Positions 797-64,000 are shown, counted from the stretch's first letter. The stretch: 64,000 nucleotides of DNA from an uncultured delta proteobacterium (GCA_963761255.1 CAVXGH010000004.1:507204-571203), one strand, 5' to 3'. The notes: generated from the sequence alone by a model not told the origin. Numbers and translations: made by a program.

Positions 797-2319
797 AGGG
801 GCCAGGAGGACTGGTTCCAGGCCATTTCCCAAAACAGAAATTCGTAGCGGCTGCTGGTCAGAAAGAGCGTCTCCAAATACGCCAACTCGCGCGCGGGCCA
901 TCCAGCGGTGAGATCGTCGAGCAATGAGCCGAGCTTTTCCGCGCCGCTGATGAACTCCTGCGACGAGTAGGTTTTAATCCACTCGGCGTATTTCGGATTC
1001 GCGCCGCTGCGGCTTTCGCCTGCCAGCGTCGTCGCGATTTCCGCGTAACCGAGTTGACAGGGAAGCACCGCTGCCACGATGTCTGCGATTGAGCCGCCGT
1101 ACGCGACGGTCGGCAGATGGCGCGTGTAGCCGTGAGTGACTGGCGCTGGTGCAATCCTCTCAAGATCGCTTTCCGTAATTCCAAGCCGCCGGCAGTAGTC
1201 GCGATGCAATTGCATCTCGGTGTTGAGCGTCTCGTCGAGCAAGCGGGTAAATAGTCCAATCGTCTGGAGGTCGCGAGCTTTGGCTGCGGCAAGTGCGAAG
1301 ACTCGGGAGTATTCGACAAGAAATACATAGTCCTGCGCGAGATAGAAGCGGAAGCGATCGAACGAGAGCGTCCCGTCGGCGAGGCCGCGCACGAAGGGAT
1401 GCTTCAGTTCGCGGTCCCAAATCGGTTGCGTCTTACCGCGAATCGCACGCGTGAATGAATTTCGGGGCGCCATCGAGTGAGTCTCACTGCCTCTTTGGAT
1501 ACGCCGAGCGATGCCGGCACCGAATGGTTCAGCGGTCTCGCGCCGTGACCGATCGGGGGAGCATTCTGCAGCGCGAGGGTCACGTACCGTTTTCGCAGCG
1601 CCGATTGCATTTTCGAGAGATTCTCCCCGCGCGAGCGACGCGGCGATGGCGGCGGAAAGCGTGCAGCCCGCGCCATGAACGCGGCCGACAGCGACTCGCG
1701 CTGCGCGAAACTCGCGGAAATGGTGACCATCGTAGAGAATGTCGGTTGCATCCTGATCTTGGACGTCATTCGCGCGCAAAACGTAGGCGCTCCCGCCTTT
1801 TACCAAGGCTGCTCGCGCACCCAGAGCTACGAGCGCTCGCGCGGCATCCCTCATCGCATCGCGATTTGAAACCTCGTGGCCGGTTAGGATGCTAGCCTCG
1901 CGCAAATTTGGGGTTACGACAGTCGCCAATGGGAGCATCAAGTCACGCATCATCACGATCGCAGCGGGTTCGAGGAGGATGTCCCCACTGGCCGTGACCA
2001 TCACGGGATCGACCACTAAATTCGCGATCTGACGAATGTGTATTCGATCCGCGACGGTCCGTATTATCTCAGTACGGGAAAGCATTCCGGTTTTTGCGGC
2101 TGCGATCGTGAAGTCATCTGCGACGGCATCGATCTGCATGGCGATGAAGGCGGGATCCAAGTCAACAATTGCACTCACGGCGCGCGTATTTTGCGCGGTT
2201 AGCGCGGTGATGGCGCTGGTGCCGAAGACGGCAAACGCGGCGAAGGTCTTGAGGTCCGCCTGGATTCCCGCACCTCCGCTGGAATCCGAGCCTCCGATGG
2301 TAAGTGCTATAGCGGTCAT
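793..2319 (-). CDS. thiD: bifunctional hydroxymethylpyrimidine/phosphomethylpyrimidine kinase (ThiD) fused to TenA-type thiaminase II
   Basis: The N-terminus [24 protein letters not shown] and VVDPVMVATSGD-like core are typical ThiD. The C-terminal half ([42 protein letters not shown]) is typical TenA. Confidence 0.9.
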
Positions 2320-2487
2320 GACGCAGGAAAGCGTAGCACGAAACCGGGTGTTTCTCCCCGAAGAGGAGGTTGCAAGACCCTGGTAGGTTCTGGGTGGATG
2401 CCGGGCGGTTCGTGTTTAACACGGCGCGCACAGACGTCTGCACCGAATCTCTTGACGAGGGATCTCAGCGGTTATAGTTCACGGCTG

Positions 2488-3043
2488 ATGGCGTGGCGGC
2501 ACGAAAGCTTGATTCCCCTTTCGCACGATCATCATGACGCCTTGCTGCTGGCGTGGCGACTGCGCACTGGCGACCTATCCAAGCGCGAGCCTGAACTGCG
2601 CGCCAGTCACGTTAGTGCATTTCGAATTTCGGCTGATCAATCATTTCAAGGTCGAAGAGGAATTGTTATTCCCCGAGTTTCGCGAAGTGTTGGGGTTGGA
2701 AGGGTCGCTGATCGAGGTGCTGCTCGGCGACCATCAGGAATTGCGGGCGCAAGCCGCCGCGATCAAGGCCGGCGCGAACGACCTGGTGGACAATTTTTGT
2801 GTCTTGCTCGAACGCCATATCCGGGCCGAGGAGCGTCAACTGTTCGTGCTGGCGCAAAATCGGATGAAGCCAACAAGGATGGCGGAGCTGGGGCGGCAGA
2901 TAAAGCTCAGCTTAAATGACGCGCGCAGCACTACAACGGGCGCAAAGTGCCAAGGGCACTCCGGCTCGCATGCCCCGCAGTCAATGCACTCGTCCGGATT
3001 TATGAAGAGCTGTTTGGGGAACATACGGTTGTCCTCGCGCTGA
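2488..3043 (+). pseudogene. hemerythrin (HHE cation-binding) domain protein, apparent frameshift
   Basis: The N-terminal part MAWRHESLIPLSHDHHDALLLAWRL is in one frame (from 2488). The core INHFKVEEELLFPEF...GDHQELR...[14 protein letters not shown] is in the next frame. Joining them needs a frame change near 2590-2610. The 3' tail overlaps the convergent ferredoxin ORF. Confidence 0.5.
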
Positions 3044-6638: not shown

Positions 6639-7403
6639 TCAGTGATTCCACCACGGACGATCGGAGAACGCCCGCAGATCGATCTCGAAGGTCCAGGTGG
6701 ATCGGTGTTGTTGAGCGAGATGGAGGTAGGTCTCCGCGATCTGCGTAGGGAGCATCAGTCCATCATGCTCGTTCCCTCGGGTTTCTCTCAGCTGTTGGAA
6801 CTTTTCCGGCCCGAGCATTTTTCCCAAAGTGTCGGGGGCATCCACGGCGCCGTCGATCACGATATGTACGACGTGGATTCCTTTCGACGCGAACTCCGCG
6901 TTGAGTGTCTGGCACAGCATTCGTCGTCCTCCCATGGCAGCCGCGTGGGAATGTTGACCACCGTTCCCACGCATCGCGGCTGTTGCCGAGGTCACGAGGA
7001 CTGTTCCTTTGCCTCGTGCTTCCATCAGTGGGCAAACGGCTGCCGCAAGACGAAACAGACCAAACGTCCCCAAGCGCCAGCCTGTTTCAAACGCCTTGAG
7101 CGAGGTGTCCTTCAATGCCCTATCGCCGATCTGGGCGCCCAAATTGTAAACCACGACTTCAATCGGGCCGATGTTGGCCTCGATGTTGGCAACCCTCTCT
7201 TCGATGGAGTCTGCCTCGATCGCATTGAGGAGAAATCCGGTTGCGGAACCTCCATCGTTCGTGATCGTGTCCACCATTCTATTCAGGCCTTCCAAGTCGC
7301 TGCGCCGACCCAGACAAGCGTGATAGCCCGCTTGCGCAAAGCGTCGTGCGACATTTCCGCCGATACCCGCACCGGCACCTATCACTAGACAAACAGGTTT
7401 CAT
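6639..7403 (-). CDS. SDR-family short-chain dehydrogenase/reductase
   Basis: CLVIGAGAGIGGNVARRFAQAGY glycine-rich motif, 254 aa. Confidence 0.85.
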   Translation of the reverse strand: MKPVCLVIGAGAGIGGNVARRFAQAGYHACLGRRSDLEGLNRMVDTITNDGGSATGFLLNAIEADSIEERVANIEANIGPIEVVVYNLGAQIGDRALKDTSLKAFETGWRLGTFGLFRLAAAVCPLMEARGKGTVLVTSATAAMRGNGGQHSHAAAMGGRRMLCQTLNAEFASKGIHVVHIVIDGAVDAPDTLGKMLGPEKFQQLRETRGNEHDGLMLPTQIAETYLHLAQQHRSTWTFEIDLRAFSDRPWWNH

Positions 7404-7548
7404 GTTCGCTCCCTCCTATGATCAAGCACAGCGCTCGATAGACTCATAAGCCGTATCTGGATCTCGTAGAATGCCCATGACCGCTCCCGAAGGCTGCTCG
7501 CCCTGGGAGTCACCGGCGTCGCATTTACGCAAGTGGACATCGGCATCG

Positions 7549-8334
7549 CTAGCGGCCTTGGAAGATGACCTTGTCACGAAACTTGCGCGGCCCATGTTCG
7601 ATCAGGCCATTAACACCCGCGCGCATGTCAGCAGTCTCGAATAGCGCAGGGGCGATCTCGTCGACCACGGCGTCGGCGGCACGGATGCCACTCTCCAGAT
7701 ACGCTCTTACGATCTTCTTGCCGGCCGCATAGGCGAGCGTTGCACCACTGGCGAGTCGCTCAGCAAAGGCTCGTGTCTCCCGCTCAAGGATTTCGTCCGG
7801 AACAACTTTGTTCACGATGTTCCATCGCTCGAACGTTGCGGCGTCGTATTGTTCGGCGGTGTAGATGATTTCGCGTGCGCGACTCGGGCCGGCCCGCTCA
7901 GCCAGACGTTGGACGCCACCCAGCAGCGTGGTCGTTCCAATCGATGCCTCGACCTGTCCGAAGCGGGCCGAAGAACCCGACCATATAAGATCGCATGCCA
8001 ATGCGAGTTCCAGTCCCGCCGCCATGCACGCCCCCTGCACGGCAGCAATGGTTGGAAACGGCAATTCCTCGAGGTCGGCGATCATTCGTAGATGGCCGGT
8101 GAAGCGCTCGCGCGCTTGGTTCGCGGTCTTGTCCTTGAAGATCGCAACATCAGCGCCGCCGGAGAAGTTTTTACCCTCGGCGCGCACCAGCAGTGCTCTC
8201 AGCGGATGCTGCCGGGCCTGGTCAACCGCCGCTCGAAGGCCTTCGATTAGTTCCTGGTCGAACAGATTTAGTGGTGGATTTGCCAGAGTAAGCATGCCGA
8301 GAGCACCAGCTGTTTCGAAACTCACCTTACCCAT
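7549..8334 (-). CDS. enoyl-CoA hydratase/isomerase (crotonase) family protein
   Basis: LTLANPPLNLFD...FSGGADV...AAVQGACMAAGLELALACD is the crotonase oxyanion-hole signature. Confidence 0.85.
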   Translation of the reverse strand: MGKVSFETAGALGMLTLANPPLNLFDQELIEGLRAAVDQARQHPLRALLVRAEGKNFSGGADVAIFKDKTANQARERFTGHLRMIADLEELPFPTIAAVQGACMAAGLELALACDLIWSGSSARFGQVEASIGTTTLLGGVQRLAERAGPSRAREIIYTAEQYDAATFERWNIVNKVVPDEILERETRAFAERLASGATLAYAAGKKIVRAYLESGIRAADAVVDEIAPALFETADMRAGVNGLIEHGPRKFRDKVIFQGR

Positions 8335-8461
8335 CGTTAGTCTCCGGTGGCTGCATTTCGTGGATCGTTGCTTCTATTTTAGAACCGACTCTTGACTAAG
8401 TTCTATTTTGGAACCTAGTATCTGTCAAGGGACAACTTCTCGCGCAGGCAGGAGCATCACG

Positions 8462-8953
8462 ATGATCCGGAAATTCAAGTTTGAGGCTGAGGTCTACGAG
8501 TCGCTTAATTGCCTTCCGATGGCGGCGCGCAGAAAGCTGGATGCAGTCGGGATTAAACTTCATCTGGCGCAATGGGAGAAGCTCGGACGCGGCGAGAGGT
8601 TGATGATCTGTCACGCTCCCGCGGATTCAGAGGACGAACAAGGTGCGCTGAGGACCTTCATCGAAGAGGTCGCGCTGGCGCGCACTAATTCTCCTGCCAA
8701 GATTCTCCCCGACGATGCGCGCCGTGCCGCGAATCCGCCCGATCATCCGCCGCAGGTGCTGGTTCAGCACGCGCGGGCTTTCGGCATCGAGCTCAACGAC
8801 ACGGCATGGGCGGCACTCGACGACGACCAGCGCTACGCCCTGATTAAACTCGGCGATTCGGAAAGGCCGAGCCATAACCTGGAGCTTGCGCTTCAGGAGT
8901 TCTTTGAAACTGGCGCGCAAGCAGAGACTTCAAGAATCGGTACCGTTGATTGA
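8462..8953 (+). CDS. nitrate reductase-associated protein-like
   Basis: FKFEAEVYESLNCLPMAARRKLDAVGIKLHLAQWEKL...RYALIKLG resembles the conserved 'nitrate reductase associated protein' family. A CAGGAG-like RBS precedes the ATG at 8462. It lies near the MopB oxidoreductase. Confidence 0.55.
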   Translation: MIRKFKFEAEVYESLNCLPMAARRKLDAVGIKLHLAQWEKLGRGERLMICHAPADSEDEQGALRTFIEEVALARTNSPAKILPDDARRAANPPDHPPQVLVQHARAFGIELNDTAWAALDDDQRYALIKLGDSERPSHNLELALQEFFETGAQAETSRIGTVD

Positions 8954-9013
8954 TTGGCGCTCAAACTGGGCCGGATCTCGCGGCGCCAATAACGAAAACA
9001 AGGAGCATGTACG

Positions 9014-9604
9014 ATGGCGGACGTGGATTTCTTCTTCGATTTTATCAGTCCCTACACTTATCTTGCCCGGACGCAACTCGATGGTATCGCCGCCCGCACC
9101 GGCGCGCGGTTCAGGATGTGGCCGATGCACATTCTCAATCTGATGAAGATCGTAGGCAATAGTCCCACAACTGTTTTGTGCAAGAACAAGCGGAACTACG
9201 CCGGCCAGGACATCGCAAGATGGTGCGCTCGCTACGAGGTTCCGTTCAAGATGAATCCGCATCTTAAGAAAGGCGATCACAGCCTCACGTTGAAGGGTGC
9301 GCTGGTTGCGCAGGAAATGAATCTTGAAGACCGATACAATGCCGCGATGTTTTCCGCGTACTGGACTGTCGCGGTGAACATTAACGACCGCGGCGAACTC
9401 GTTCGGCACCTCGAAGCCGCTGAACTGGATGGGAGCGCGATTCTGACGAACGCGGAAAGACCCGAATACGCTAAGCGCCTGGAATCCAACACACAGATCG
9501 CAGCCGATCGCGGTGCTTTCGGCTCCCCAACTTTTATCGTCGGTGACGACATTTTCTTCGGGAACGACCGGCTGGACTTCCTCGAGCAACGACTCCTTCG
9601 CTAG
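9014..9604 (+). CDS. 2-hydroxychromene-2-carboxylate isomerase / DsbA-like thioredoxin-fold protein
   Basis: VDFFFDFISPYTYLA at the N-terminus and GAFGSPTFIVGDDIFFGNDRLDFLE at the C-terminus are family hallmarks. Confidence 0.85.
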   Translation: MADVDFFFDFISPYTYLARTQLDGIAARTGARFRMWPMHILNLMKIVGNSPTTVLCKNKRNYAGQDIARWCARYEVPFKMNPHLKKGDHSLTLKGALVAQEMNLEDRYNAAMFSAYWTVAVNINDRGELVRHLEAAELDGSAILTNAERPEYAKRLESNTQIAADRGAFGSPTFIVGDDIFFGNDRLDFLEQRLLR

Positions 9605-9697
9605 GTACGCCGCCACATCGAAAGGAGTAAAGAGCGAAGTCGAAGACGTTGGAAGAGAAGACGCTGGAACAAAGACTGACAAATGGAGGTCAATAAA

Positions 9698-9992
9698 ATG
9701 GGTGTCATGGTACTTGTTGAAATGCAGGTTAAACTGGAAGCGGTGAACGAGGCGAAAGGGCTTCTGAAACAGATGCTGCCGGATACGCGCGCCTACGACG
9801 GCTGCCAGAAGCTCGATAATCTATGGCAACGTGGACGATACGGGCAATCTGGTGTTTTATGAACTGTGGCAAACGCGCGACCACCATCAGCGCTATCTCG
9901 CTTGGCGCACCCAGACCGGGGCCCTCGGCAAACTCGGCGAGAAGTTAACCGGACCACCGAAGATTCGCCACTACGACCGGGTACATGTCTGA
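9698..9992 (+). pseudogene. antibiotic-biosynthesis-monooxygenase (ABM) domain protein, frameshifted
   Basis: GGAGG RBS with ATG at 9698. MGVMVLVEMQVKLEAVNEAKGLLKQMLPDTRAYDGCQKLD stops at 9862. The rest of the domain (IYGNVDDTGNLVFYELWQTRDHHQRYLAWRTQTGALGKL...HYDRVHV*) continues in the next frame from about 9819 to 9992. Neither piece is in the ORF track. Confidence 0.6.
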
Positions 9993-10047
9993 ACGCAGCC
10001 GCTCCGGCTGCATCACTCACACTAGGTAGAAACAAAAGATTAATGCA

Positions 10048-11115
10048 CTAGTGGCCTGTAACAGGTGAAATGGTATCAATACTGATTCGATGTGTGGGGT
10101 CGCGGTAGGTCCACTTGATGGGTTTGGGGGCGTGATTATCGTGACCGATGTAGCGCTTAAGTTTGCGCGCCAGATGCTTGACCGAGGTGAAGACTCCGCG
10201 GGCAATGACATCGCGCTCGATCTTGGCGAACCAGTTTTCTACCTGATTGAGCCAGGAGGAGTAGGTCGGGGTGTAGTGGAGATGGACTTTCGGGTGGGCG
10301 GCGAGGAATTGCCCAACCCGCTTGGTCTTGTGGGCCGAGAGATTGTCGGCAATGAGGTGAATCTCCTTGCCGCGCGGCTGATTGGCGACCAGCTCGGCGA
10401 GGAAGGCCACGAACTCCTGGCTGGTGTGACGCGCGGCGGTTTTGCCCACCACCGCGCCGCTCTTGGTGTCAAGCGCCGCGTACAGCGAAAGCGTGCCGTG
10501 GCGATAGTATTCAAAACCGTGGCGTTCCAGCCGCCCGGGCGACAAAGGCAACACCGGATCCAGCCGGTCCAGGGCTTGAATGGCGGTCTTTTCGTCTACG
10601 CAAAACACCGCCGCATGCTGCGGCGGTTTGACGTACAGTCCGATAATATCGGCTGCCTTAGTCTCAAAGTCGGGATCGTCGGAGGCCATGTAGCGTTCGA
10701 TCCGATGCGGCCTAAGCCCGGCGCGCTGCCACACCCGCGCCACCATCATGTGGCTGATGCCCAGGTGGCGGGCCAACTTGCGGCTGCTCCAGTGGGTGGA
10801 GCCATCGGGCGGAGGTCTGCGGGTCCATTCCAGAATTTTGGCTTCCAGCGCCGGGGTTCGTTTCTCCACCGCGCGTCCGCGGTAGTGCGAGTACAAGCCC
10901 GCCAGCCGCTCGGCTTCGAAACGACCCTTCCAGCGACTGATATAGTTGGGGTTGCAGCCCAGCACCTGGCGGATGGCCGAATAAGATTTTCCCTCCACCA
11001 GCAACAGGATCAGCCGCGCACGGCGCACATCCTCGGCCGGCAAGGTCCGCGAGCGCATCCTATCCCTCAGTTCCGCGCGCTCACTCGACCTCAAGCGTAA
11101 CTCCCCTTTAGGCAT
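10048..11115 (-). CDS. IS630-family DDE transposase
   Basis: 355 aa with an N-terminal HTH (GKSYSAIRQVLG). DDE-like residues lie in FCVDEKTAIQAL, IADNLSAHKT and LNQVENWFAKIE. The TAG stop is formed by the flanking TA plus the next host base. Confidence 0.9.
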   Translation of the reverse strand: MPKGELRLRSSERAELRDRMRSRTLPAEDVRRARLILLLVEGKSYSAIRQVLGCNPNYISRWKGRFEAERLAGLYSHYRGRAVEKRTPALEAKILEWTRRPPPDGSTHWSSRKLARHLGISHMMVARVWQRAGLRPHRIERYMASDDPDFETKAADIIGLYVKPPQHAAVFCVDEKTAIQALDRLDPVLPLSPGRLERHGFEYYRHGTLSLYAALDTKSGAVVGKTAARHTSQEFVAFLAELVANQPRGKEIHLIADNLSAHKTKRVGQFLAAHPKVHLHYTPTYSSWLNQVENWFAKIERDVIARGVFTSVKHLARKLKRYIGHDNHAPKPIKWTYRDPTHRISIDTISPVTGH

Positions 11116-11162
11116 GCCTCATGATACATGAAGCCCATACCAATGTCACTGTTACAGGCCAC
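10051..11162 (-). mobile_element. IS630-family insertion sequence, apparently intact
   Basis: Perfect 14-bp terminal inverted repeats GTGGCCTGTAACAG (10051-10064) and CTGTTACAGGCCAC (11149-11162). Each is flanked by TA (10049-10050 and 11163-11164), the IS630/Tc1 target duplication. A single transposase ORF lies inside. Confidence 0.9.
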
Positions 11163-11254
11163 TAACCACTGCGAAATCACGTTACCTCAACACATTAGGC
11201 GTTTCAGTGAGATGGATAGAAAACGAAGAACATTAGTGAAAGTGCCGCTAGAAT

Positions 11255-12015
11255 TCACAATCCAACAGGTACTTCCCAGGCGCGCTCCGCGATTAGCTTG
11301 AATATCGGATACAGAACCAGACCGGCAGTGATACCTATCCTAATGTTGAAGGTGGAGCTCATCAGCGCGATGGTAGCGAAGGCAGGAAGTAACTCGGTCG
11401 GATCATCGAAATTGATTTTCGCGATCGGCGCCATCATCGAGCCGACCACAGTCAACGCCGGACGACAGGCAGCCGCAGGAATCGCAGTAACAGCGGGCGC
11501 GAAAAAGAGCGCCAGCGCGAACATCGCGGCCACGACGATTGCGGTGAACCCGGTCCTGCCGCCCACACCTATAAAGTGAGGAAGAGTCCAATGCCAGCCG
11601 CGAAGCTGTGACTGAGAGTGGATGGAAGCGCTTCGACCATCCATTCGCGGACTTTGACCAGAGTGAGCAGCATAAAGGCCACCCCCGCGATGAACACAGC
11701 TCCCAACGCGGTCTGCCACCGGTAGCCCATCGCGCGGACCACGGTGAACGCGACGAATGCGTGTTCTCCCATGTAAGGAGCGATTGCGAAGGGCCGGTTT
11801 GGGATTAGCCCCATCGCGAGCGAGCCGAAAATCGCGGTTACGATGGTGGCCGTCATCGAGGCGCCTTCCGGAATGCCGGCTGCCTTGAGGATCGCGGGAT
11901 TGACCGCGATGATGTACGACATGGTGACGAAGGTCGATACGCCGGCTACCAACTCGTGTTTGTAGATGGTCTTATAGCGCTCGAATTCGAAGAACTCCGC
12001 AATCCGCTGGCGCAT
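11255..12015 (-). pseudogene. NCS2/AzgA-family purine (adenine/guanine/hypoxanthine) permease remnant
   Basis: The N-terminal third (FFEFERYKTIYKHELVAGVSTFVTMSYIIAVNP...FAAGIGLFLTL*) and the C-terminal quarter (FIGVGGRTGFTAIVVAAMF...PALTVVGSMMAP...LVLYPIF) sit in different frames. The whole central block of helices found in PbuG/AdeP-type permeases is missing between them. Confidence 0.75.
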
Positions 12016-12031
12016 CAACGCTAGTAAAGAG

Positions 12032-13936
12032 TCATGGCGCCAGAGACCAGTCCTCGCGATCGAGAGTAAGGTGATGGCCATAGTAAGGATCCGGTTGCTT
12101 CAAACAGTGGTCCCATCGCTTGACAAATCCTTCCAGGTCACCCGAGACATGCATGCGCCGCCGGGTCGCGCTCTCATAATGATAGAGCAGGGCGAACGGC
12201 GTGTAGACGATCCGATAGCCACGATGTCTCACGCGCAGACAAAGATCGATGTCGGCGAAATCGACCAGGAATTTTTCGTCGTAACCTGCTACCTCATCAA
12301 ACACCGAGCGCCGCATCATCATGCAGGCTGCGGTTACCGAGCTGCAGTCACGGATGACATCACTGAGTCCAAAGTAGTGAGGCTCGTTGCCAGCCGTCAG
12401 CCTGAAAGCGTGACCGACCATGCCTCCGATACCGAGTACCGCGCCCGCGTGCTGAACCCGCCCATCGGCAAAAAGTAACTTGGCACCGACCGCACCGATC
12501 TGGGGCCGCTGAGCTTGCTCAATAAGCGCGCGCATCCAATCAGAGCGAATGACCTGGGTGTCATTGTTTAAAAAGAGAAGCAATTCTCCTTTCGCCTTCG
12601 ATACCCCATAGTTGTTGATTGCCGAGAAGTTAAACCGTCCCGGATAGCGATGAACCTGCACCTTGCCGGCGATCTGATCGAAGTAAGCGAGAGTGTCAGG
12701 CTCGGTGCTATCGTTATCCAGAACTATGATCTCGTAATTCTTATAGTCGGTGTTGCGCTCGATACTTTCGAGACATTGGCGGAGCAAGTGGCACTTGTCG
12801 CGAGTAGGAATCAGGATCGAAACGAGAGGCTCACCGCGAATCTCGTGGCGAACGGCATACAAACCCGGACCTACAACTTCCACTCTGCCGGCCTCTCCAC
12901 GCCGATGCAGGGCTTCATCAAGTGCCTGCATGGATTGCCTTTCGCACTCGGCCTCGCTCTCGACCTGAGGGACCTCGCTACGATGGGATAGAACGTCCGG
13001 AATGTGAACAATGCTGTTACTGAGGTCTACCGCGCGAAGCGCGAAGTCATAGTTCTGGCAAGTCCCAAAGCTATGGCGGGGACCACCGATTTGTTTTGCG
13101 AGTGCGGTTCGGATGATGAAGGAGTCGCCCAGGTAGTTCATCGAGAAAAGCAGCTCAGGACTCCAGTCCGGTTTAAAAAACGGCTTCGTCCGTCGCCCCT
13201 CGGAATCGATGCGGTCATCGTCCCAATAAATGATATCGACCGCGCCATTGCGATTCAGGAGTTTCACAACCGCATAGAAGTTCCCGGCGCTGAGCGATCC
13301 GGTATAAGCCATGAAGATGCTGAATTCGCCCTCTGCCAGATCGAGAAGATCGACTGCGGTAGGAGAAGCCTCCCCGCCTGGCATCCGATGTCTTAAAGAG
13401 ATGCGCGCGTCGCCAGCGGCATAGCGTGACAGCATCGCCTCAATCGGCTGCGGAATAGTTGCGTCTATTACGATGCGCAGCTGCCAGTTATCATAAATTT
13501 GCGCCCGAACCGATTCGACGGCGGCCTTAAGCCCACTCTCGGTGGCCGCATTATCTGCGACTTCAAGCACTACGCTGATGAGTGGACGATAGGGGAACGT
13601 CGCGGCAGCAGACCTGGCGGCCTCGAGGCTCTCCGGAGTCATCTCATGCGCTTCGAGCCAGAGCTGATAATTGACGCTATCATCACGGTGGCTGCCCACG
13701 CTCCTATCCAGCACCCAGACCGCGAGCTTCTCATAGAGGCGAACCGCCGAATTATCACGATGACGTTCGATCCAGCGACGATAGCGCTTGACGATCTTCC
13801 AGGCGTAGCTCCGCTGGATCTGACGGAGCTCGCGTCTAACCGTATCGCGTTCGGTTTCGAGGCGCTGAATTTCGCGATTGAGAAAATCGTTGGAAGCTTT
13901 GGAGTTCGACGTTTCCGCTGACCGATCCGAGTTCAT
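12032..13936 (-). CDS. family 2 glycosyltransferase with N-terminal coiled coil (two GT2-like halves)
   Basis: VSILIPTRDKCHLLRQCLESIERNTDYKNYEIIVLDNDSTEP...LLLFLNNDTQV is a GT-A/GT2 signature. A second degenerate GT2-like region (ISVVLEVADN...) precedes it. There is a 4-nt overlap with rmlC. Confidence 0.8.
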   Translation of the reverse strand: MNSDRSAETSNSKASNDFLNREIQRLETERDTVRRELRQIQRSYAWKIVKRYRRWIERHRDNSAVRLYEKLAVWVLDRSVGSHRDDSVNYQLWLEAHEMTPESLEAARSAAATFPYRPLISVVLEVADNAATESGLKAAVESVRAQIYDNWQLRIVIDATIPQPIEAMLSRYAAGDARISLRHRMPGGEASPTAVDLLDLAEGEFSIFMAYTGSLSAGNFYAVVKLLNRNGAVDIIYWDDDRIDSEGRRTKPFFKPDWSPELLFSMNYLGDSFIIRTALAKQIGGPRHSFGTCQNYDFALRAVDLSNSIVHIPDVLSHRSEVPQVESEAECERQSMQALDEALHRRGEAGRVEVVGPGLYAVRHEIRGEPLVSILIPTRDKCHLLRQCLESIERNTDYKNYEIIVLDNDSTEPDTLAYFDQIAGKVQVHRYPGRFNFSAINNYGVSKAKGELLLFLNNDTQVIRSDWMRALIEQAQRPQIGAVGAKLLFADGRVQHAGAVLGIGGMVGHAFRLTAGNEPHYFGLSDVIRDCSSVTAACMMMRRSVFDEVAGYDEKFLVDFADIDLCLRVRHRGYRIVYTPFALLYHYESATRRRMHVSGDLEGFVKRWDHCLKQPDPYYGHHLTLDREDWSLAP

Positions 13937-58616: not shown

Positions 58617-59198
58617 ATGAAAGAATTCACCCCCACCGAGGCCGCAGCAATCATCGATCTGCCGGTGCGTTTCGTTCAGAAGGCAATCGATGAAGGCCCT
58701 CTTGGCGCGGCGCGAAACCGTAAAGGTCGCGCTTTGGATCTCGAAGATCTCGTCTTCCTCTATCTGATTGGCCGGCTAGATTCAGGATTCGTCAGGCTGA
58801 CCTCCGCGGCAAAGCGACAGCTCCGAAAGAAGCTCGGCGAGTCGCTTCGCGCGAGTACTGCTCTCGACATTGGCGGATGCGTCTTCCAGGTTAAGTCCGC
58901 GTTCCGCACGATCCGGACGCGGCTCGCGAAACTTCAGACAGCCAAGCGCAAGGTGGTTTCAGATCCAGAAATCCGCGGCGGCCTGCCAGTCATCAAAGGC
59001 ACCAGGATCGGCGTCTACGAAATCGCCGCGATGCTTGAACAGGAGCCAAATGAGGCCGAATTCCTCGAGGAGTATCCCTCTCTCCAAGCACAGGACCTCG
59101 AAATCGCGAAGATCTACTCCGCCGCATATCCGCGTCGCGGCCGCCCTCCGCGTCATCCGTGGCACATCGCGCAGAGGCCGCGCGAAGTTGCGGCGTGA
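58617..59198 (+). CDS. DUF433 domain protein with N-terminal HTH (antitoxin-like)
   Basis: The C-terminal VSDPEIRGGLPVIKGTRIGVYEIAAML...EYPSLQAQDLEIA is the DUF433 signature. Confidence 0.75.
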   Translation: MKEFTPTEAAAIIDLPVRFVQKAIDEGPLGAARNRKGRALDLEDLVFLYLIGRLDSGFVRLTSAAKRQLRKKLGESLRASTALDIGGCVFQVKSAFRTIRTRLAKLQTAKRKVVSDPEIRGGLPVIKGTRIGVYEIAAMLEQEPNEAEFLEEYPSLQAQDLEIAKIYSAAYPRRGRPPRHPWHIAQRPREVAA

Positions 59199-59299
59199 AA
59201 TTTCTCATCGATGAGTGTTGCGCCAAAAGCCTGGTGCGGATTGCACAGTCGCACACGAACTTCAGCGCAGCTCTTCTCACATTTGAGTCTCGTTGTTAA
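59195..59299 (+). pseudogene. truncated DUF5615 (Mut7-C/PIN-like toxin-like) gene
   Basis: GTGA overlap with the DUF433 stop. VKFLIDECCAKSLVRIAQ matches the MKFLIDE.. N-terminus of DUF5615 partners, but the ORF ends after 34 codons where the AT-richer insert begins. Confidence 0.45.
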
Positions 59300-59339
59300 T
59301 AATTATTGCCAGGTCAAAACAAAAGGGCATCTCCGCAAA

Positions 59340-60329
59340 ATGGCTGTAGAAATAGCACCACGCAACCCGACCCGTCACCGCTACTCGGTGAGCCTCATAC
59401 AGCAAAACCGGTTTCAATTTTATAGTCTAACAATGCCGACCGACGTGCTGGCGCGAACGGCGTTCGTTACGACCCGTGACGAAGATCCCCAGAAGGGATT
59501 TCAACGAATTCTTGACAAGAAGCGAGCGCAAGAGATCGCAGATTATATTGACAACTCGAAGAACAGTATTCCGAGCGCGATAGTGCTTTCGGCGCAAGCC
59601 GATGCTGAGCTCAGATATGATCGAAAAAACAAGACCATCGATTTTCTGGATACCCCACGCGCGTTTCTGATACTCGATGGTCAACATCGCGTGTACGGAT
59701 TCTCTCTCGCGAAGACGGTACTGCGAGTTCCGGTCGTTATCTACAACAATCTGGATAGGACAGAAGAGTCGCGGTTATTCATTGACATTAATACTAAGCA
59801 ACGGCCGGTGCCGAATGAACTTCTCCTTGACATAAAGAGCCTAGCGGAATACGAAAACGACGCCGAGCAGCTTCTTCGTGACACTTTTGACAGATTTTCT
59901 GCTGATCCCAAGAGCCCACTGTTGGGATTGCTTAGTCCCGCGTCAAAAGTACCCGGAAAGCTCACGCGCGTATCGTTCAATGCCGCCTTCAAGCCTCTCA
60001 TTCCTACATTCGGCGAGGCCGATACAGAAATGATATTTCTAACCACTCGGAACTATCTAGAGGCGTTCGCAGTCGGTCTGGAATCCATGGCGGCCCGCAA
60101 AAGCTTGGTAAATCCAATCACTTTTCGCGCGATAATGTCCCTCTTCCCTGAAGTCGCGCAGCGGGTCAAAGACCGATTCGCAGCGACTTATACAACGGAA
60201 AACTTTTCTGCTGTCCTAGCCCCAATTTTTGGCAAGGTTAAGGGATCGACGTTCTTGAAGCCTGGGTCCAGCGTTAGATCATTGCATGATGTTTTGTTCA
60301 ATCTCTTCACGAAGTCGTTCACTCTCTAG
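59340..60329 (+). CDS. DGQHR-domain protein (DndB/DpdB-like, ParB/Srx superfamily)
   Basis: Literal motif FLILDGQHRVYGF (DGQHR at nt 59676-59690) plus RLFIDINTKQRPVPNELLLDI. 329 aa from the ATG at 59340; the upstream part of the tracked ORF crosses the truncated gene. Confidence 0.8.
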   Translation: MAVEIAPRNPTRHRYSVSLIQQNRFQFYSLTMPTDVLARTAFVTTRDEDPQKGFQRILDKKRAQEIADYIDNSKNSIPSAIVLSAQADAELRYDRKNKTIDFLDTPRAFLILDGQHRVYGFSLAKTVLRVPVVIYNNLDRTEESRLFIDINTKQRPVPNELLLDIKSLAEYENDAEQLLRDTFDRFSADPKSPLLGLLSPASKVPGKLTRVSFNAAFKPLIPTFGEADTEMIFLTTRNYLEAFAVGLESMAARKSLVNPITFRAIMSLFPEVAQRVKDRFAATYTTENFSAVLAPIFGKVKGSTFLKPGSSVRSLHDVLFNLFTKSFTL

Positions 60330-60336
60330 AATCCCG

Positions 60337-61311
60337 ATGCCAGTCATCGCTGACGCGTTAAGACCGTTTTGGGCTGCAAATATAAACGCCGTGAATGGCC
60401 GACCAGAATTTGGTCTTCAGGATTGGTTCACTCTTCGCGAGTATCAAGTACTCCAACCGCTTCAGCCAAACAGCGCAACAATAGTAATTTCGGACGCAAC
60501 GAAATTCTTGCGCGCTCTGGCGTTCGACTACAATCGAATGTCGACAGCGGCATTCGAGACGATGTCGGTAATCACGCGCAGTCCCGTATTCCCGAACTCG
60601 ACTGCTTGGCTTCTAATTCAAACCTACTATGCGGCATTTTTCGCGGCGCAGGCGTTAATGAGGGTTCTAGGAGTCAGCTATACGCAGATAGATACTGTGA
60701 CCGCGAGAGACGTAGACCGCGTTTCGCAAATATACGGTATGAAGGGCGCCCACTCTTTTGCAGCTGGAAACTATCGATGTTCATACGTGCTGGGGCCCTA
60801 CGGGGATCAACTTGTCTGCGATTCTTCTCGAGGTCAAGGCTCTGGCGTACATGAGGCGATGTGGATTGGATTTCTAGCCGTTATCAAAAAGCTAAGCAGG
60901 GACATTCTCGCCTCGAATCAAAACCAGTATCAGGAAGTGTCCCTAAAACTCGACGAACTTGCCGCCGCACTGTCATCTGGAACTCGGCAGAATGGCGGGT
61001 GGCTCTCTTACATGCGAAACATGATCAACTACAGACATTCTTTTGGTTGCTGGCATCCGTACCGAGCATCTCGTCGGCAAGCCGACGCGTTATTTGCACG
61101 ACTGCGTGGAAATGCTTGGACGAGAGATCCAATGGACATTTCGTTAGGCCCTCCCAGGTTCGACTTCGAAGAGGTCGAGTTTTTTCAGCGCATTTGCCAA
61201 TTTCTAGTAGGAATGTGCAGAACGATTACCGAAGACCTGGAAAATCGCTGCCCGGCCGGGAAATCCTTTCTGAACGGCGGCGCAATGACGGTACTAAGCC
61301 GAGCCGCGTGA
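60337..61311 (+). CDS. hypothetical helical protein, possible HEPN-like effector
   Basis: The ATG lies 7 nt after the DGQHR stop; 324 aa. Helix AWLLIQTYYAAFFAAQALMRVLG, and later LSYMRNMINYRHSF (R-x6-H at nt 61015-61038). No family recognised by eye. Confidence 0.65.
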   Translation: MPVIADALRPFWAANINAVNGRPEFGLQDWFTLREYQVLQPLQPNSATIVISDATKFLRALAFDYNRMSTAAFETMSVITRSPVFPNSTAWLLIQTYYAAFFAAQALMRVLGVSYTQIDTVTARDVDRVSQIYGMKGAHSFAAGNYRCSYVLGPYGDQLVCDSSRGQGSGVHEAMWIGFLAVIKKLSRDILASNQNQYQEVSLKLDELAAALSSGTRQNGGWLSYMRNMINYRHSFGCWHPYRASRRQADALFARLRGNAWTRDPMDISLGPPRFDFEEVEFFQRICQFLVGMCRTITEDLENRCPAGKSFLNGGAMTVLSRAA

Positions 61312-61560
61312 CGGCCGGCGAAAACCTACCACAAACTCGCGATGCGTTCCCGTGGGGAAGCATCGCGAAAACGTTCTTCAGAAACAAATTGATTCAGGTC
61401 TGACGGTAAGTCACAATATTTGTACAGGGCAGCGCGCCCGAGTTATTCGAGGAGGTCATCGATAGCGGCATAGAAAGACACCCTCACTCTTGTCTCTCCC
61501 ACGTAAGACGCAGGAGAGATGATGAAGAAGCGGCGTTTTTCGTCCATAATTACCGAGAGT

Positions 61561-61722
61561 AGCGCCAGACTCGCGCATCGCGCGAGTTAACGAGGTGGAA
61601 GCTTATCGAAAGATTCGGCGGATGGCTTCCCGGTTCCACAATCGTCAGAGTCGGACAAACCGCGCGGGTGACCGCACGACAAATCCCGGCTCAAGTGGGT
61701 GAAGCGGAGTGGCTTCACATCA
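61561..61722 (+). ncRNA. glmS ribozyme: glmS ribozyme (GlcN6P-activated self-cleaving riboswitch)
   Basis: Near-consensus core read directly: A|GCGCCAGA, P1 hairpin CTCGCGC-atc-GCGCGAG, TTAACGAGG, TGGAAGC, TTATCGAAAGATTCGGCGGATG, GCTTCCCGGTT, GCGGGTGACCGC, ACGACAAA, GGGTGAAGCGGAGTGGCTTCAC. The predicted cleavage site lies between A61561 and G61562. Same strand as, and upstream of, glmS. Confidence 0.88.
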
Positions 61723-61753
61723 GGAATTTCTAAACTCTCCCCCACACATAATC

Positions 61754-61936
61754 GTCATTCGAACGTGCGAGGCTCCGGAACGTCGCTTCGCGGAGATTCT
61801 TCGCGCGCGGCGGCAGGGTCCGCTTAGAATGACAGGGTAGGAAATTTGGCGTCATCTCAAGCCGACGCGCAACCGTACCGCATCGGGGAACGTCCTTGAG
61901 TGCGGTGCATCGAGTGCGCGGGGCGCTCGGGATGAC
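61754..61936. repeat. two REP-like imperfect palindromic units in the glmS leader
   Basis: Unit 1 runs from GTCATTCgaacg (61754) to cttaGAATGAC (61833). Unit 2 runs from GTCATCTCAAGCCGACGCGC (61851) to GCGCGGGGCGCTCGGGATGAC (61936). Confidence 0.4.
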
Positions 61937-62014
61937 AAAGAAGAGAGCATCGGAGTGCGTGGAGCGCCCGCCACCGTCGGGCGCGGACGCCCTCCGGCTC
62001 TCACCCGGTCGTCA

Positions 62015-62134
62015 CAGTTGTCGCGAAATCCAGGAGCGACAACTGCGCCGCCCACCCTCTCTCGCATCGCGAGAGAGGGGATTACGAAAGACGGCCTCGA
62101 CCACCTTCTTCCCCTTCCACTTCAGGGGAAGGGG
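62015..62134 (+). promoter_or_regulatory. three consecutive strong stem-loops immediately upstream of the glmS start
   Basis: CAGTTGTCGC-11 nt-GCGACAACTG (62015-62045). CCCTCTCTCGC-atc-GCGAGAGAGGG (62055-62079). CCCCTTCC-8 nt-GGAAGGGG (62111-62134). An AGGAGA RBS lies at about 62150. Confidence 0.5.
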
Positions 62135-62162
62135 CCAGGGGTTAGGTCACAGGAGAATCTGT

Positions 62163-64000
62163 ATGTGCGGAATTGTTGGATACGTAGGAAAGCAGGATGC
62201 CTATCCAATCCTCATCGGAGGATTGCAGCGGCTGGAATATCGCGGCTATGACTCCGCCGGGATCGCGACTCTCGTCGCGAACGGCGCGATGCATATTCGG
62301 CGCGCCAAGGGCAAACTCGAAAACCTCCGCGCGATGGTCGGGCAGGCGCCGCTCGGAGGGCATATCGGAATCGGACATACGCGGTGGGCCACCCATGGCA
62401 AACCGTCCGAGGAAAACGCGCATCCGCATAAGGCCGGGCCCGTCGCCGTCATCCATAACGGGATCGTCGAGAACTTCGTCGCGCTGCGCGCCGCACTCGT
62501 CGCGCGCGGCCATAAGATGAAATCGGAGACCGATACCGAGCTGATTTCGCATCTTATCGAGGAGAATCTTGGATGCGGGACCTGCGGCGCTCCCGCCGGC
62601 GATGGCTCTACCAACCTCGGCTCCAAGGGACTGACCGAGGCGGTCCGCGCCGCGGTCGGTGAGCTGCGCGGCTCGTTTTCGATCGTCGTGATGTCGGAAA
62701 GCGAGCCCGACAAGCTGGTGGCGGCCAAGACCGCCACCCCGATGGTGCTCGGCTATGGCGAAGGCGAAAACTTTATCGCGTCGGACATCCCCGCACTGCT
62801 GGAGCATACGCGGATGACGCTGGTGCTGGAGGACGGGGAGCTGGCGGAAGTGACCGCCTCGGGCATCAAAGTGATGTTATTCGATGGAACCCCGGTTACG
62901 CGGGCGCCGCGGCGGGTCGAATGGAGCTCGGCGGTGGCTACTAAAGGTGGCTATAAGCATTATTTGCGCAAGGAAATCGCCGAGCAGCCTCAAGCATGGA
63001 TCGACACGATGGCGGGGCGCGCATCGGCTAATTCGGCCTCGGTAAGCTTTGAGACCGACCTGATGCCTCCCGCCGGCGCCGAATCGATCAAGCGTATCGT
63101 GATGCTGGGGGCCGGCGCGTCGTGGATAACGGCCAATATCGGCAAATTCATCATCGAGGAGATCGCGGGTGTGCCCGTCGAGGTCGATTACGCGGGCGAG
63201 TTTCGCTATCGGCGGCCGCCGGTCGGCGAGGGCACGGTGGTCATTGCGGTGTCGCAGTCAGGCGAGACGGCGGACACGCTGGCTGCGATGGAGGAAGCGG
63301 CCTCGCGCGGGGCACATCTTATCGCGCTGACGAACACCGTGGATTCGTCGATCGCGCGGAAGGCGAATGCGCAAATATACACGCGATGCGGGCCGGAGAT
63401 CAGCGTAACCACGACTAAATGCTTCATAACTCAGATAGAGGCGTATTACCTGTATGCGATACATCTTGGCGTAAAGCTGGGTAAGCTATCGGAAGCGCAG
63501 GTATCGGAGCTGCTGAAGGCGGCCTTCGCCATTCCTTCGCAGATCGAGGCGGTCATCAGCAGTGAGAAGCACATAGAAGCAGTTGCTCGCAAATATGCTT
63601 CGGCAACGGATTTTCTCTTCCTGGGGCGCGGGATCGACTACCCGGTCGCCTTCGAAGGAGCTCTCAAGCTCAAGGAGATTTCCTACATCCATGCCGAGGG
63701 GTATTCGGCCAGCGAGATGAAGCATGGCCCGATCGCGCTCATCGATGACAAGATGCCGGTCGTCGTTCTCATCCCCAATGATCATCTGTACGAAAAGTCG
63801 CTGTCCAATATGAAGGAAGTCGAGTCGCGCAACGGCCGGATTATCGCTGTCACGGATCGAAAGTCGCCGGAGCTCGAGCGCATCGCCGCCGATATCATCG
63901 AGGTCCCAACGACGTCGCCGCTGCTGATGCCCATCCTCATGACGGTGCCACTACAGTTGATGGCCTACCACATCGCGGTGGAGCGCGGCACCGACGTTGA
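62163..64000 (+). CDS. glmS: glutamine--fructose-6-phosphate aminotransferase (partial, runs off window end)
   Basis: MCGIVGYVGKQDAYPILIGGLQRLEYRGYDSAGIA N-terminus (Ntn Cys2). SIS domains (GACGTSWxx-like GAGASWITA, SQSGETADTL) and ...MAYHIAVERGTDVD near the C-terminus. About 10 codons are missing. It is not in the supplied ORF track because no stop lies in the window. Confidence 0.93.
   Translation, partial: MCGIVGYVGKQDAYPILIGGLQRLEYRGYDSAGIATLVANGAMHIRRAKGKLENLRAMVGQAPLGGHIGIGHTRWATHGKPSEENAHPHKAGPVAVIHNGIVENFVALRAALVARGHKMKSETDTELISHLIEENLGCGTCGAPAGDGSTNLGSKGLTEAVRAAVGELRGSFSIVVMSESEPDKLVAAKTATPMVLGYGEGENFIASDIPALLEHTRMTLVLEDGELAEVTASGIKVMLFDGTPVTRAPRRVEWSSAVATKGGYKHYLRKEIAEQPQAWIDTMAGRASANSASVSFETDLMPPAGAESIKRIVMLGAGASWITANIGKFIIEEIAGVPVEVDYAGEFRYRRPPVGEGTVVIAVSQSGETADTLAAMEEAASRGAHLIALTNTVDSSIARKANAQIYTRCGPEISVTTTKCFITQIEAYYLYAIHLGVKLGKLSEAQVSELLKAAFAIPSQIEAVISSEKHIEAVARKYASATDFLFLGRGIDYPVAFEGALKLKEISYIHAEGYSASEMKHGPIALIDDKMPVVVLIPNDHLYEKSLSNMKEVESRNGRIIAVTDRKSPELERIAADIIEVPTTSPLLMPILMTVPLQLMAYHIAVERGTDV

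Follow-up and report, generated by a model that had tools for sequence, protein, structure and literature searches.

The 64,000-nucleotide stretch of DNA analysed here (the window) comes from an uncultured delta proteobacterium (GCA_963761255.1, CAVXGH010000004.1:507204-571203). It contains two adjacent genes, the first for a DGQHR-domain (ParB/DndB-like) protein and the second, which starts 7 nt downstream on the same strand, for a protein of an unnamed family that we refer to as the partner (Table 1). An earlier reading of the sequence (the original prediction) had described the two as an AT-rich insertion carrying an orphan DGQHR protein and a HEPN-like protein, a candidate stand-alone defence module. 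The analysis confirms this finding and shows it to be broader than first read: the pair is an obligate, co-evolving and horizontally mobile two-gene module. The HEPN label and the defence function are treated here as hypotheses.

The upstream open reading frame (ORF) contains the two motifs that had been pointed out, FLILDGQHRVYGF and FIDINTKQRPV, and both the ORF list and the family scans confirmed its identity. It scored 160.3 bits (E = 7.6e-47) against the TIGR03187 DGQHR model, whose curated cut-off is 58.85, and is thus a member of that family; PF14072 (E = 1.7e-17) is the sole Pfam family listed for it. In the PADLOC scan the top match was DpdB (E = 1.7e-13), with DndB behind it. The protein is the equivalog of neither, reaching 23.5 bits with the DndB model TIGR03233 (cut-off 328) and 48.2 bits with the DpdB model NF041060 (cut-off 300); with TIGR04172 it scored 66 bits (cut-off 450). 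Searches with the DGQHR protein retrieved more than 3000 homologs from very different phyla, many of them 55–62% identical. Its N-terminal half is almost unchanged across phyla, and the GFQR, DGQHR and FIDINTKQ motifs are invariant in the family (34 and 73 relatives compared). Sequence and profile searches returned no solved structure among these relatives. DGQxR ParB-like domains bind and hydrolyse nucleoside triphosphates (NTPs). A DndB-like protein has been found to bind ATP and GTP (10.1101/2025.10.10.680097). Both proteins of the pair are basic and non-hydrophobic, with median isoelectric points of 9.2 (DGQHR) and 8.7 (partner).

To follow the pair in other genomes, loci were collected through the DGQHR protein; a scan of one genome per species gave 80 loci, and the pairing count was made over 86. 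A same-strand ORF of 312–347 amino acids lies within ~50 nt 3′ of the DGQHR gene in 76 of the 86, and all 76 of these ORFs are homologous to the window partner (E 1e-20 to 1e-73). Nine of the remaining ten retain partner remnants. The partner is frameshifted in four of them (L009, L038, L063 and L084), interrupted by IS21 in L017 (11296–13779) and by a 3.4-kb insert in L077 (11275–14663), reduced to a displaced remnant in L057, and cut by the contig end in the others; in the tenth locus (L086) the contig ends at the DGQHR gene itself. Synteny, which had been proposed as a check of the original prediction, therefore holds: every informative locus carries the partner, or what is left of it, beside the DGQHR gene. 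Clustering of the flanking ORFs over ±8 kb in the 80 loci revealed no third conserved gene.

The two proteins also evolve together. Their pairwise identities correlate (Mantel r = 0.66, reached by 0 of 999 permutations), yet they diverge at very different rates, the mean pairwise identity being 52% for the DGQHR protein vs 26% for the partner and the fraction of positions that are at least 95% identical 20% vs 4%. The hosts, again counted as one genome per species, include Acidobacteriota, Gemmatimonadota, Alpha-, Beta- and Gammaproteobacteria, Bacteroidota, Cyanobacteria, Verrucomicrobiota, Planctomycetota, Clostridia, Actinomycetes and others, about ten phyla in all. At 74 of 75 loci the GC content of the pair is below that of its flanks; the mean difference is 12 GC points and the largest 25. 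AT-richness is therefore a hallmark of the whole family, which points to repeated horizontal transfer. One protein of 489 amino acids (P0235) joins the first ~190 residues of the DGQHR protein in frame to a partner that lacks its first ~10; it represents a natural fusion or else the result of a deletion.

The partner had been described as a 324-residue protein, 7 nt downstream, that could not be placed, and this was borne out: it has no match in Pfam, NCBIfam or PADLOC. Nor do 134 members of its family match any model in these collections consistently, and all members checked in NCBI and UniRef are annotated as "hypothetical" or "uncharacterized". A word-indexed protein search retrieved only three homologs, each adjoining a PF14072 gene where the neighbour was visible, and the partner was at this stage taken for a rare orphan. 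That view was overturned by an exhaustive hidden Markov model search, which found at least 1000 clusters at 50% identity (475 at E ≤ 1e-30), so the word "orphan" does not describe the pair either. Nearly all members are single-domain proteins of 310–335 amino acids.

An AlphaFold2 model of the partner built from 134 sequences has a predicted local distance difference test (pLDDT) score of 96.6 and a predicted template-modelling (pTM) score of 0.94. It replaced a first model from four sequences (pLDDT 63.6), whose Foldseek matches to rhodopsin and G protein-coupled receptors were meaningless. Long helices are predicted at residues 54–77, 90–110, 171–192, 196–212 and 278–303, together with a small sheet (46–51, 113–118, 144–151 and 158–163) and a short helix (222–231) that runs into a loop. 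Foldseek searches of PDB and BFVD with this model gave nothing at E ≤ 0.001, the TM-scores being ~0.1–0.2, and the family profile found nothing relevant among PDB sequences. The partner is thus predicted, with high confidence, to adopt a fold without a known relative. Among the 134 members Y97, H172, W176, Y232, W239 and P241 are invariant, and E74, W91, Y98, R109, G112, G144, W222, L223, S224, R227 and N228 are at least 95% conserved (R227 and N228 in 133 members, E74 in 131). The invariant H, R-N, Y and E thus stand among many invariant aromatic residues.

Several identities for the partner were considered and rejected. It is not a decayed paralog of the DGQHR protein (hhalign probability 0.2%). 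A tyrosine-recombinase R-H-R-Y site made up of R109, H172, R227 and Y232 would lack the HxxR spacing, and no Foldseek match to that fold was obtained. A His-Me finger would require the β-hairpin 144–163 that precedes H172 to supply a histidine, but its first strand has no conserved one and there is no DUF1524 or HNH match. Helix 90–110 is hydrophobic; it is the only such helix, the model is compact and the grand average of hydropathy is −0.11, which argues against a membrane protein.

Table 1. Features of the window around the gene pair (positions counted from the first nucleotide of the window).
Feature	Position	Strand	Size	Basis and remarks
DUF433 gene (helix-turn-helix + DUF433), left flank, host-native	58617–59198	+		PF04255, E = 3.8e-16
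DUF5615 (PIN-like) gene remnant	59195–59299	+		native to ~59248 (~18 codons), then read-through
Inserted cargo	59249–61382	+	2134 bp	GC 0.505; breakpoints from alignments with L090 (left) and L092 (right)
Gene 1, DGQHR-domain (ParB/DndB-like) protein	59340–60329	+	329 aa	ORF list, TIGR03187, PF14072
Gene 2, partner protein, basic, α+β	60337–61311	+	324 aa	ORF list, unnamed family
Hairpin after the partner stop codon, within the cargo	61337–61368	+	14-bp stem	inverted repeat; centroid fold −22.9 kcal/mol
glmS ribozyme, right flank, native	61550–61702	+		RF00234, 80.5 bits

The copy in the window occupies a segment of distinct composition with definable edges. Its GC content lies 3.5 standard deviations under the window mean of 0.573 (standard deviation 0.019, 2.1-kb windows), and the GC profile drops from ~0.59 to ~0.50 over the gene pair. 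The cargo is the lowest-GC 2.1-kb stretch of the whole 64 kb, so the AT-richer segment noticed originally is real. A metagenome scan with the DUF433 protein of the left flank yielded three related loci (L090, L091 and L092), with protein identities of 84% and 66%. In L090 (84%) the DUF433 gene ends in the same GTGA overlap, which is followed by VKFLIDECCAKSLARIA and leads into a DUF5615 ORF (PF18480, E = 2.7e-6). The DNA of this locus is ~90% identical to the window up to 59247, where similarity is lost. It follows that only ~18 codons of the DUF5615 gene remain and that read-through accounts for the other codons of the 34-codon ORF. The original prediction was right about the remnant, but counted all 34 codons as its length and placed the cut exactly at the AT-rich run, ~45 nt beyond the point where homology actually ends. 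On the other side L092 (66%) realigns from position 61383 through the ribozyme with ~93% identity, and the two breakpoints together delimit the cargo. Its right flank is indeed the glmS leader, as had been recognized, with the right edge of the cargo at ~61382. No terminal repeats and no recombinase were found at the flanks. These alignments support a foreign insertion that removed most of a toxin-antitoxin (TA)-like DUF5615 gene, in agreement with the original prediction.

The corresponding interval of L092 (VFSW01000681.1, 5600–8300, equivalent to 59165–61382 of the window) carries a different cargo between the DUF433 gene and the glmS ribozyme. It encodes a helix-turn-helix protein, an N6_N4 methylase (E = 4.9e-17) and a 209-residue type II endonuclease (PADLOC REase_II, E = 1.6e-7). 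Since restriction-modification genes occupy the very site that holds the pair in the window, this appears to be a hotspot at which different defence cargoes alternate.

We tentatively propose, at a little short of even chances, that the pair is a self-contained, horizontally mobile anti-invader module in which the two proteins act as sensor and effector. The DGQHR protein would be the conserved sensor or switch, a ParB/DndB-like, NTP-binding and DNA-associated protein; its NTPase activity and its sensing of DNA are inferred from the family to which it belongs. The faster-evolving partner downstream would be translationally coupled to it, form a complex with it and serve as both the specificity and the effector subunit, most likely as a nuclease-type enzyme acting on nucleic acid, with an active site drawn from the constellation of H172, R227-N228, Y232 and E74. 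Both the effector role and this chemistry are putative. This scheme is modelled on GmrS/GmrD, SspE and Menshen NsnA, in which an effector is licensed by the DNA-sensing, ParB-like NTPase domain (DGQxR) to which it is linked. Five loci retain an intact DGQHR ORF beside a broken partner (L017, L077 and three with frameshifted or truncated partners), as would fit a costly effector rather than an antitoxin.

The closest likeness in logic is to GmrS/GmrD (GmrSD, BrxU) and SspE, which combine a ParB-like DUF262 NTPase sensor with a DUF1524 His-Me nuclease. DUF262/ParB domains are NTPase sensors that activate nucleases, and in GmrSD and SspE the sensor detects DNA and licenses the linked nuclease (PMC12065111). 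The pair shares with them the ParB/Srx-fold domain, the DGQxR motif, the QR pair and FxxxN (PMC4619093). GmrS and GmrD can moreover be two adjacent genes that stand alone without a methylase, as the pair does in the window. However, the motif reads DGQHR (TIGR03187) instead of the DGQQR of DUF262, there is no DUF262 match in gene 1 and no DUF1524 match in gene 2 or its 133 relatives, and the partner, unlike the GmrSD/SspE nuclease, shows neither a His-Me nor an HNH signature and matches no known fold. Menshen NsnA combines a ParB-DUF262 sensor with a DndB-C-like DNA-binding domain and polymorphic effectors (PMC12065111). Menshen depends, however, on the ABC-type (ABC/OLD) ATPase NsnB and on NsnC, whereas only two genes are conserved here, and PADLOC gave no Nsn match for the pair.

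DndB and DpdB belong to the same DGQHR domain family as gene 1 and probably bind ATP or GTP (10.1101/2025.10.10.680097), but the linkage that defines their systems is missing. Within ±8 kb in the 80 loci neither dndCDE nor dpdA is a conserved neighbour; the constant neighbour is instead the ~320-residue unnamed protein, which has no TGT match. In the window itself no dnd, dpd or ssp gene occurs among the matches listed for the other 44 long ORFs (the first 25 of 44 matched families); the families listed are of the housekeeping kind. The pair thus stands alone, as originally described. It is not described in the papers mentioning DGQHR in the full-text library searched, nor in the Dnd reappraisal (PMC10853773), the Menshen paper or the BREX survey.

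A first rival, which we consider unlikely, retains the HEPN assignment: the partner would be a HEPN-fold RNase, and the DGQHR sensor would unleash RNA cleavage and abortive infection. Part of the conservation pattern invites this reading. R227-N228 is kept in 133 of 134 members and a polar residue after the arginine is typical of HEPN motifs; in the AlphaFold2 model a helix gives way to a loop at this motif, which is the position described for Rx4-6H in HEPN domains (PMC3710099); a conserved acidic residue, E74 (131/134), lies upstream; an α/β insert separates the long helices; and H172, upstream and invariant, is reminiscent of HEPN domains of the AbiV/AF0298 type, which have an alternative histidine in place of that of the motif (PMC3710099). 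The motif histidine itself is the difficulty. H234 (R+7) is present in only 86 of the 134 members (64%; Q in 29, L in 11, others in 8), and the position that the histidine of R-x4-H would take (R+5) is occupied by the invariant Y232. The canonical R/H dyad can therefore not be the conserved catalytic pair of the family. In addition, none of the 134 members matches any Pfam family at E ≤ 0.05, HEPN families included, or any NCBIfam or PADLOC HEPN model. The family profile retrieves no HEPN chain from PDB, and Foldseek lists no HEPN protein in its top 50, although small helical domains within a larger protein are difficult for this method. Taken together, the HEPN identity was not substantiated. 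HEPN calls have been revised before: the C-terminal domain of DndB was assigned to HEPN in 2013 (PMC3632139) and to a DNA-binding "ParBDB" domain in 2025 (PMC12065111).

The nearest described HEPN family in terms of context is MAE_28990 (PMC3710099), which we could compare by its description only. Like the pair it occurs with a ParB-like gene and a DNA methylase, but here this holds only for a seven-locus clade and is the context neither of the window nor of most loci. The conserved R-N motif of the partner is a further likeness, whereas the family is listed as keeping Rx4-6H and the partner keeps its histidine in 64%. HEPN families that share operons with ParB nucleases and methylases were already recorded in the same survey of 2013, so the original statement that DGQHR proteins are described only as parts of modification systems was too strong.

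Second among the rivals, and improbable in our judgement, is a DNA-modification pair of the DpdA/DpdB kind, in which a DGQHR ATPase would power the alteration of a base or of the backbone for self-marking or anti-restriction, with no cleavage. DpdB is the ATPase that drives DpdA and is required for DpdA-catalysed base exchange (PMC12839542), and it is DpdB that ranks above DndB as the PADLOC match of the DGQHR protein. The aromatic residues W91, Y97, Y98, W176, W222, Y232 and W239, together with the conserved E, H, R and N, would suit a base-binding pocket, and one clade is linked with restriction-modification genes. Yet the partner bears no likeness to TGT or to any other known modifying enzyme, no precursor-synthesis or cognate restriction gene is conserved nearby, and the DpdB equivalog score falls far under its cut-off.

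The genomic surroundings bear on both defence and regulation. The 148 immediate neighbour proteins are mainly the products of housekeeping genes of many kinds; a minority are NotI-family endonucleases, DpnI-like enzymes, methylases and integrases. Type IIG enzymes lie near the pair in two loci (L024 and L008). A co-directional methylase directly precedes the DGQHR gene in six genomic loci (L024, L034, L046, L065, L078 and L082) and on the 10.1-kb RepM plasmid pTR3_4 of Acinetobacter sp. TR3 (L088), and in five of these seven a NotI-family endonuclease gene lies between the two. The plasmid cassette consists of methylase, NotI-family endonuclease, DGQHR and partner genes with gaps or overlaps of 1–3 nt, makes up ~40% of the plasmid and lies a few genes from BrnTA. 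The six genomic copies form one clade for both proteins (the plasmid copy was outside this comparison). The association with methylases therefore belongs to one lineage and is not a general rule.

The same evidence speaks to the last-ranked rival, a regulatory or accessory pair for restriction-modification modelled on DndB as an ATP-dependent repressor, with the solitary copies as remnants. DndB is reported to be a transcriptional regulator (PMC4507180; PMC10853773), and one clade does sit inside methylase/endonuclease operons. However, the linked copies are that single clade, more than 90% of the loci have no restriction-modification gene as immediate neighbour, and the solitary copies are under strong purifying selection across phyla. 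We regard this explanation as very improbable.

Mobility and decay would also be expected of a selfish addiction (TA-like) module, in which one protein is toxic, the other neutralizes it and invaders play no part. The two genes are closely spaced in a compact bicistronic unit, their horizontal movement and frequent decay are both in evidence, and the window copy lies in a TA-rich spot (DUF433/DUF5615 adjoining, and a Fic gene in L090). Against this, both proteins are ~325 residues long and neither resembles a small labile antitoxin or contains a helix-turn-helix; the partner has been destroyed where the DGQHR ORF is intact and so is not an essential antitoxin; and the pair is nearly absent from plasmids, where addiction modules thrive. 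The small antitoxin and the intolerance of its loss that mark type II systems were not found, the reverse direction of decay not having been sampled without bias. We place this rival third and think it decidedly improbable.

Returning to the sensor-effector proposal, several observations weigh against it. The partner has no recognizable nuclease fold or motif. As the neighbours are mostly housekeeping genes, the pair is usually a lone islet and not part of a defence island, and the defence neighbours that do occur are counted as raw occurrences. Among 50,697 phage records there is no copy of the pair, and only two of 72,556 plasmid records have one. The gene-decay asymmetry (5 to 0) is biased, since it was the DGQHR protein that served to collect the loci. 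The window copy may itself be functionally altered: residue 105 (60649–60651), on the conserved face of helix 90–110, is Q where 117 of 134 relatives have H. On the other side, the defence role of the original prediction has gained circumstantial evidence from context: the clade with a methylase and NotI-family endonuclease, the restriction-modification cargo of L092 at the site of the pair, the type IIG and DpnI-like enzymes and integrases among the neighbours, and copies in predicted viral contigs. The function remains inferred.

Predicted viral contigs complete the survey. IMG/VR contains 11 viral contigs with a DGQHR relative, nine of them with the partner, and some of the predicted viral contigs that carry the pair are cut from isolate genomes. 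One IMG/VR entry (L102, IMG/VR UViG 2822674343_000002, 7100–13450) encodes a distant DGQHR protein of 342 amino acids (37–43% identity) with no partner downstream. Its gene has on one side an ORF with an FRG-like motif (NIWFRGH) and on the other two large ORFs for P-loop ATPases, which lie on the opposite strand; it may belong to a different DGQHR-based system.

In bacterial immunity a general role as DNA sensors is emerging for ParB-like NTPases of the DGQxR type (GmrSD, SspE, Menshen, Dnd and Dpd). If the proposal is correct, the pair adds a compact and widespread two-gene member whose second subunit lies outside the Pfam, NCBIfam and PADLOC models. The confident predicted fold without a Foldseek neighbour in PDB or BFVD suggests that the partner may carry new enzymology. 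It is conceivable, though on the doubtful side, that the pair represents an unnamed, phylum-spanning defence system with a new-fold effector, and possibly a new nucleic-acid chemistry, switched by a ParB-like NTPase. With ~55–60% identity between phyla for the DGQHR protein vs ~26% for the partner, the module is a clean system for asking which subunit has specificity. Because Citrobacter, Kluyvera, Kosakonia and Klebsiella aerogenes have versions of it, the module can be tested directly in E. coli, in whose complete genomes the enterobacterial cassette was not found, and pTR3_4 is a compact natural vehicle of the four-gene cassette.

Some minor features of the flanks deserve mention. The hairpin behind the partner gene has no T-run and the terminator scan made no call there; it may mark the transcript end or act as a stabilizer. 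In L090 the DUF5615 gene is apparently frameshifted into two ORFs (1400–1811), and a Fic-domain gene with a duplicated 67-residue upstream ORF lies nearby (41–244 and 2138–3003), a TA-rich neighbourhood. To the right of the cargo, the non-coding stretch 61383–61549, 5′ of the glmS ribozyme, matches no Rfam family and is ~93% identical to L092 despite the 66% identity of the DUF433 proteins; the L092 equivalent has ~77 extra nt, including a second copy of CCCTCACTCTTGTCTCTCCC. The ribozyme is followed by a gap of ~460 nt (61703–62163) before glmS begins (ATG at 62164), and within this gap lie two short perfect or near-perfect hairpins at 62007–62053 and 62055–62079.

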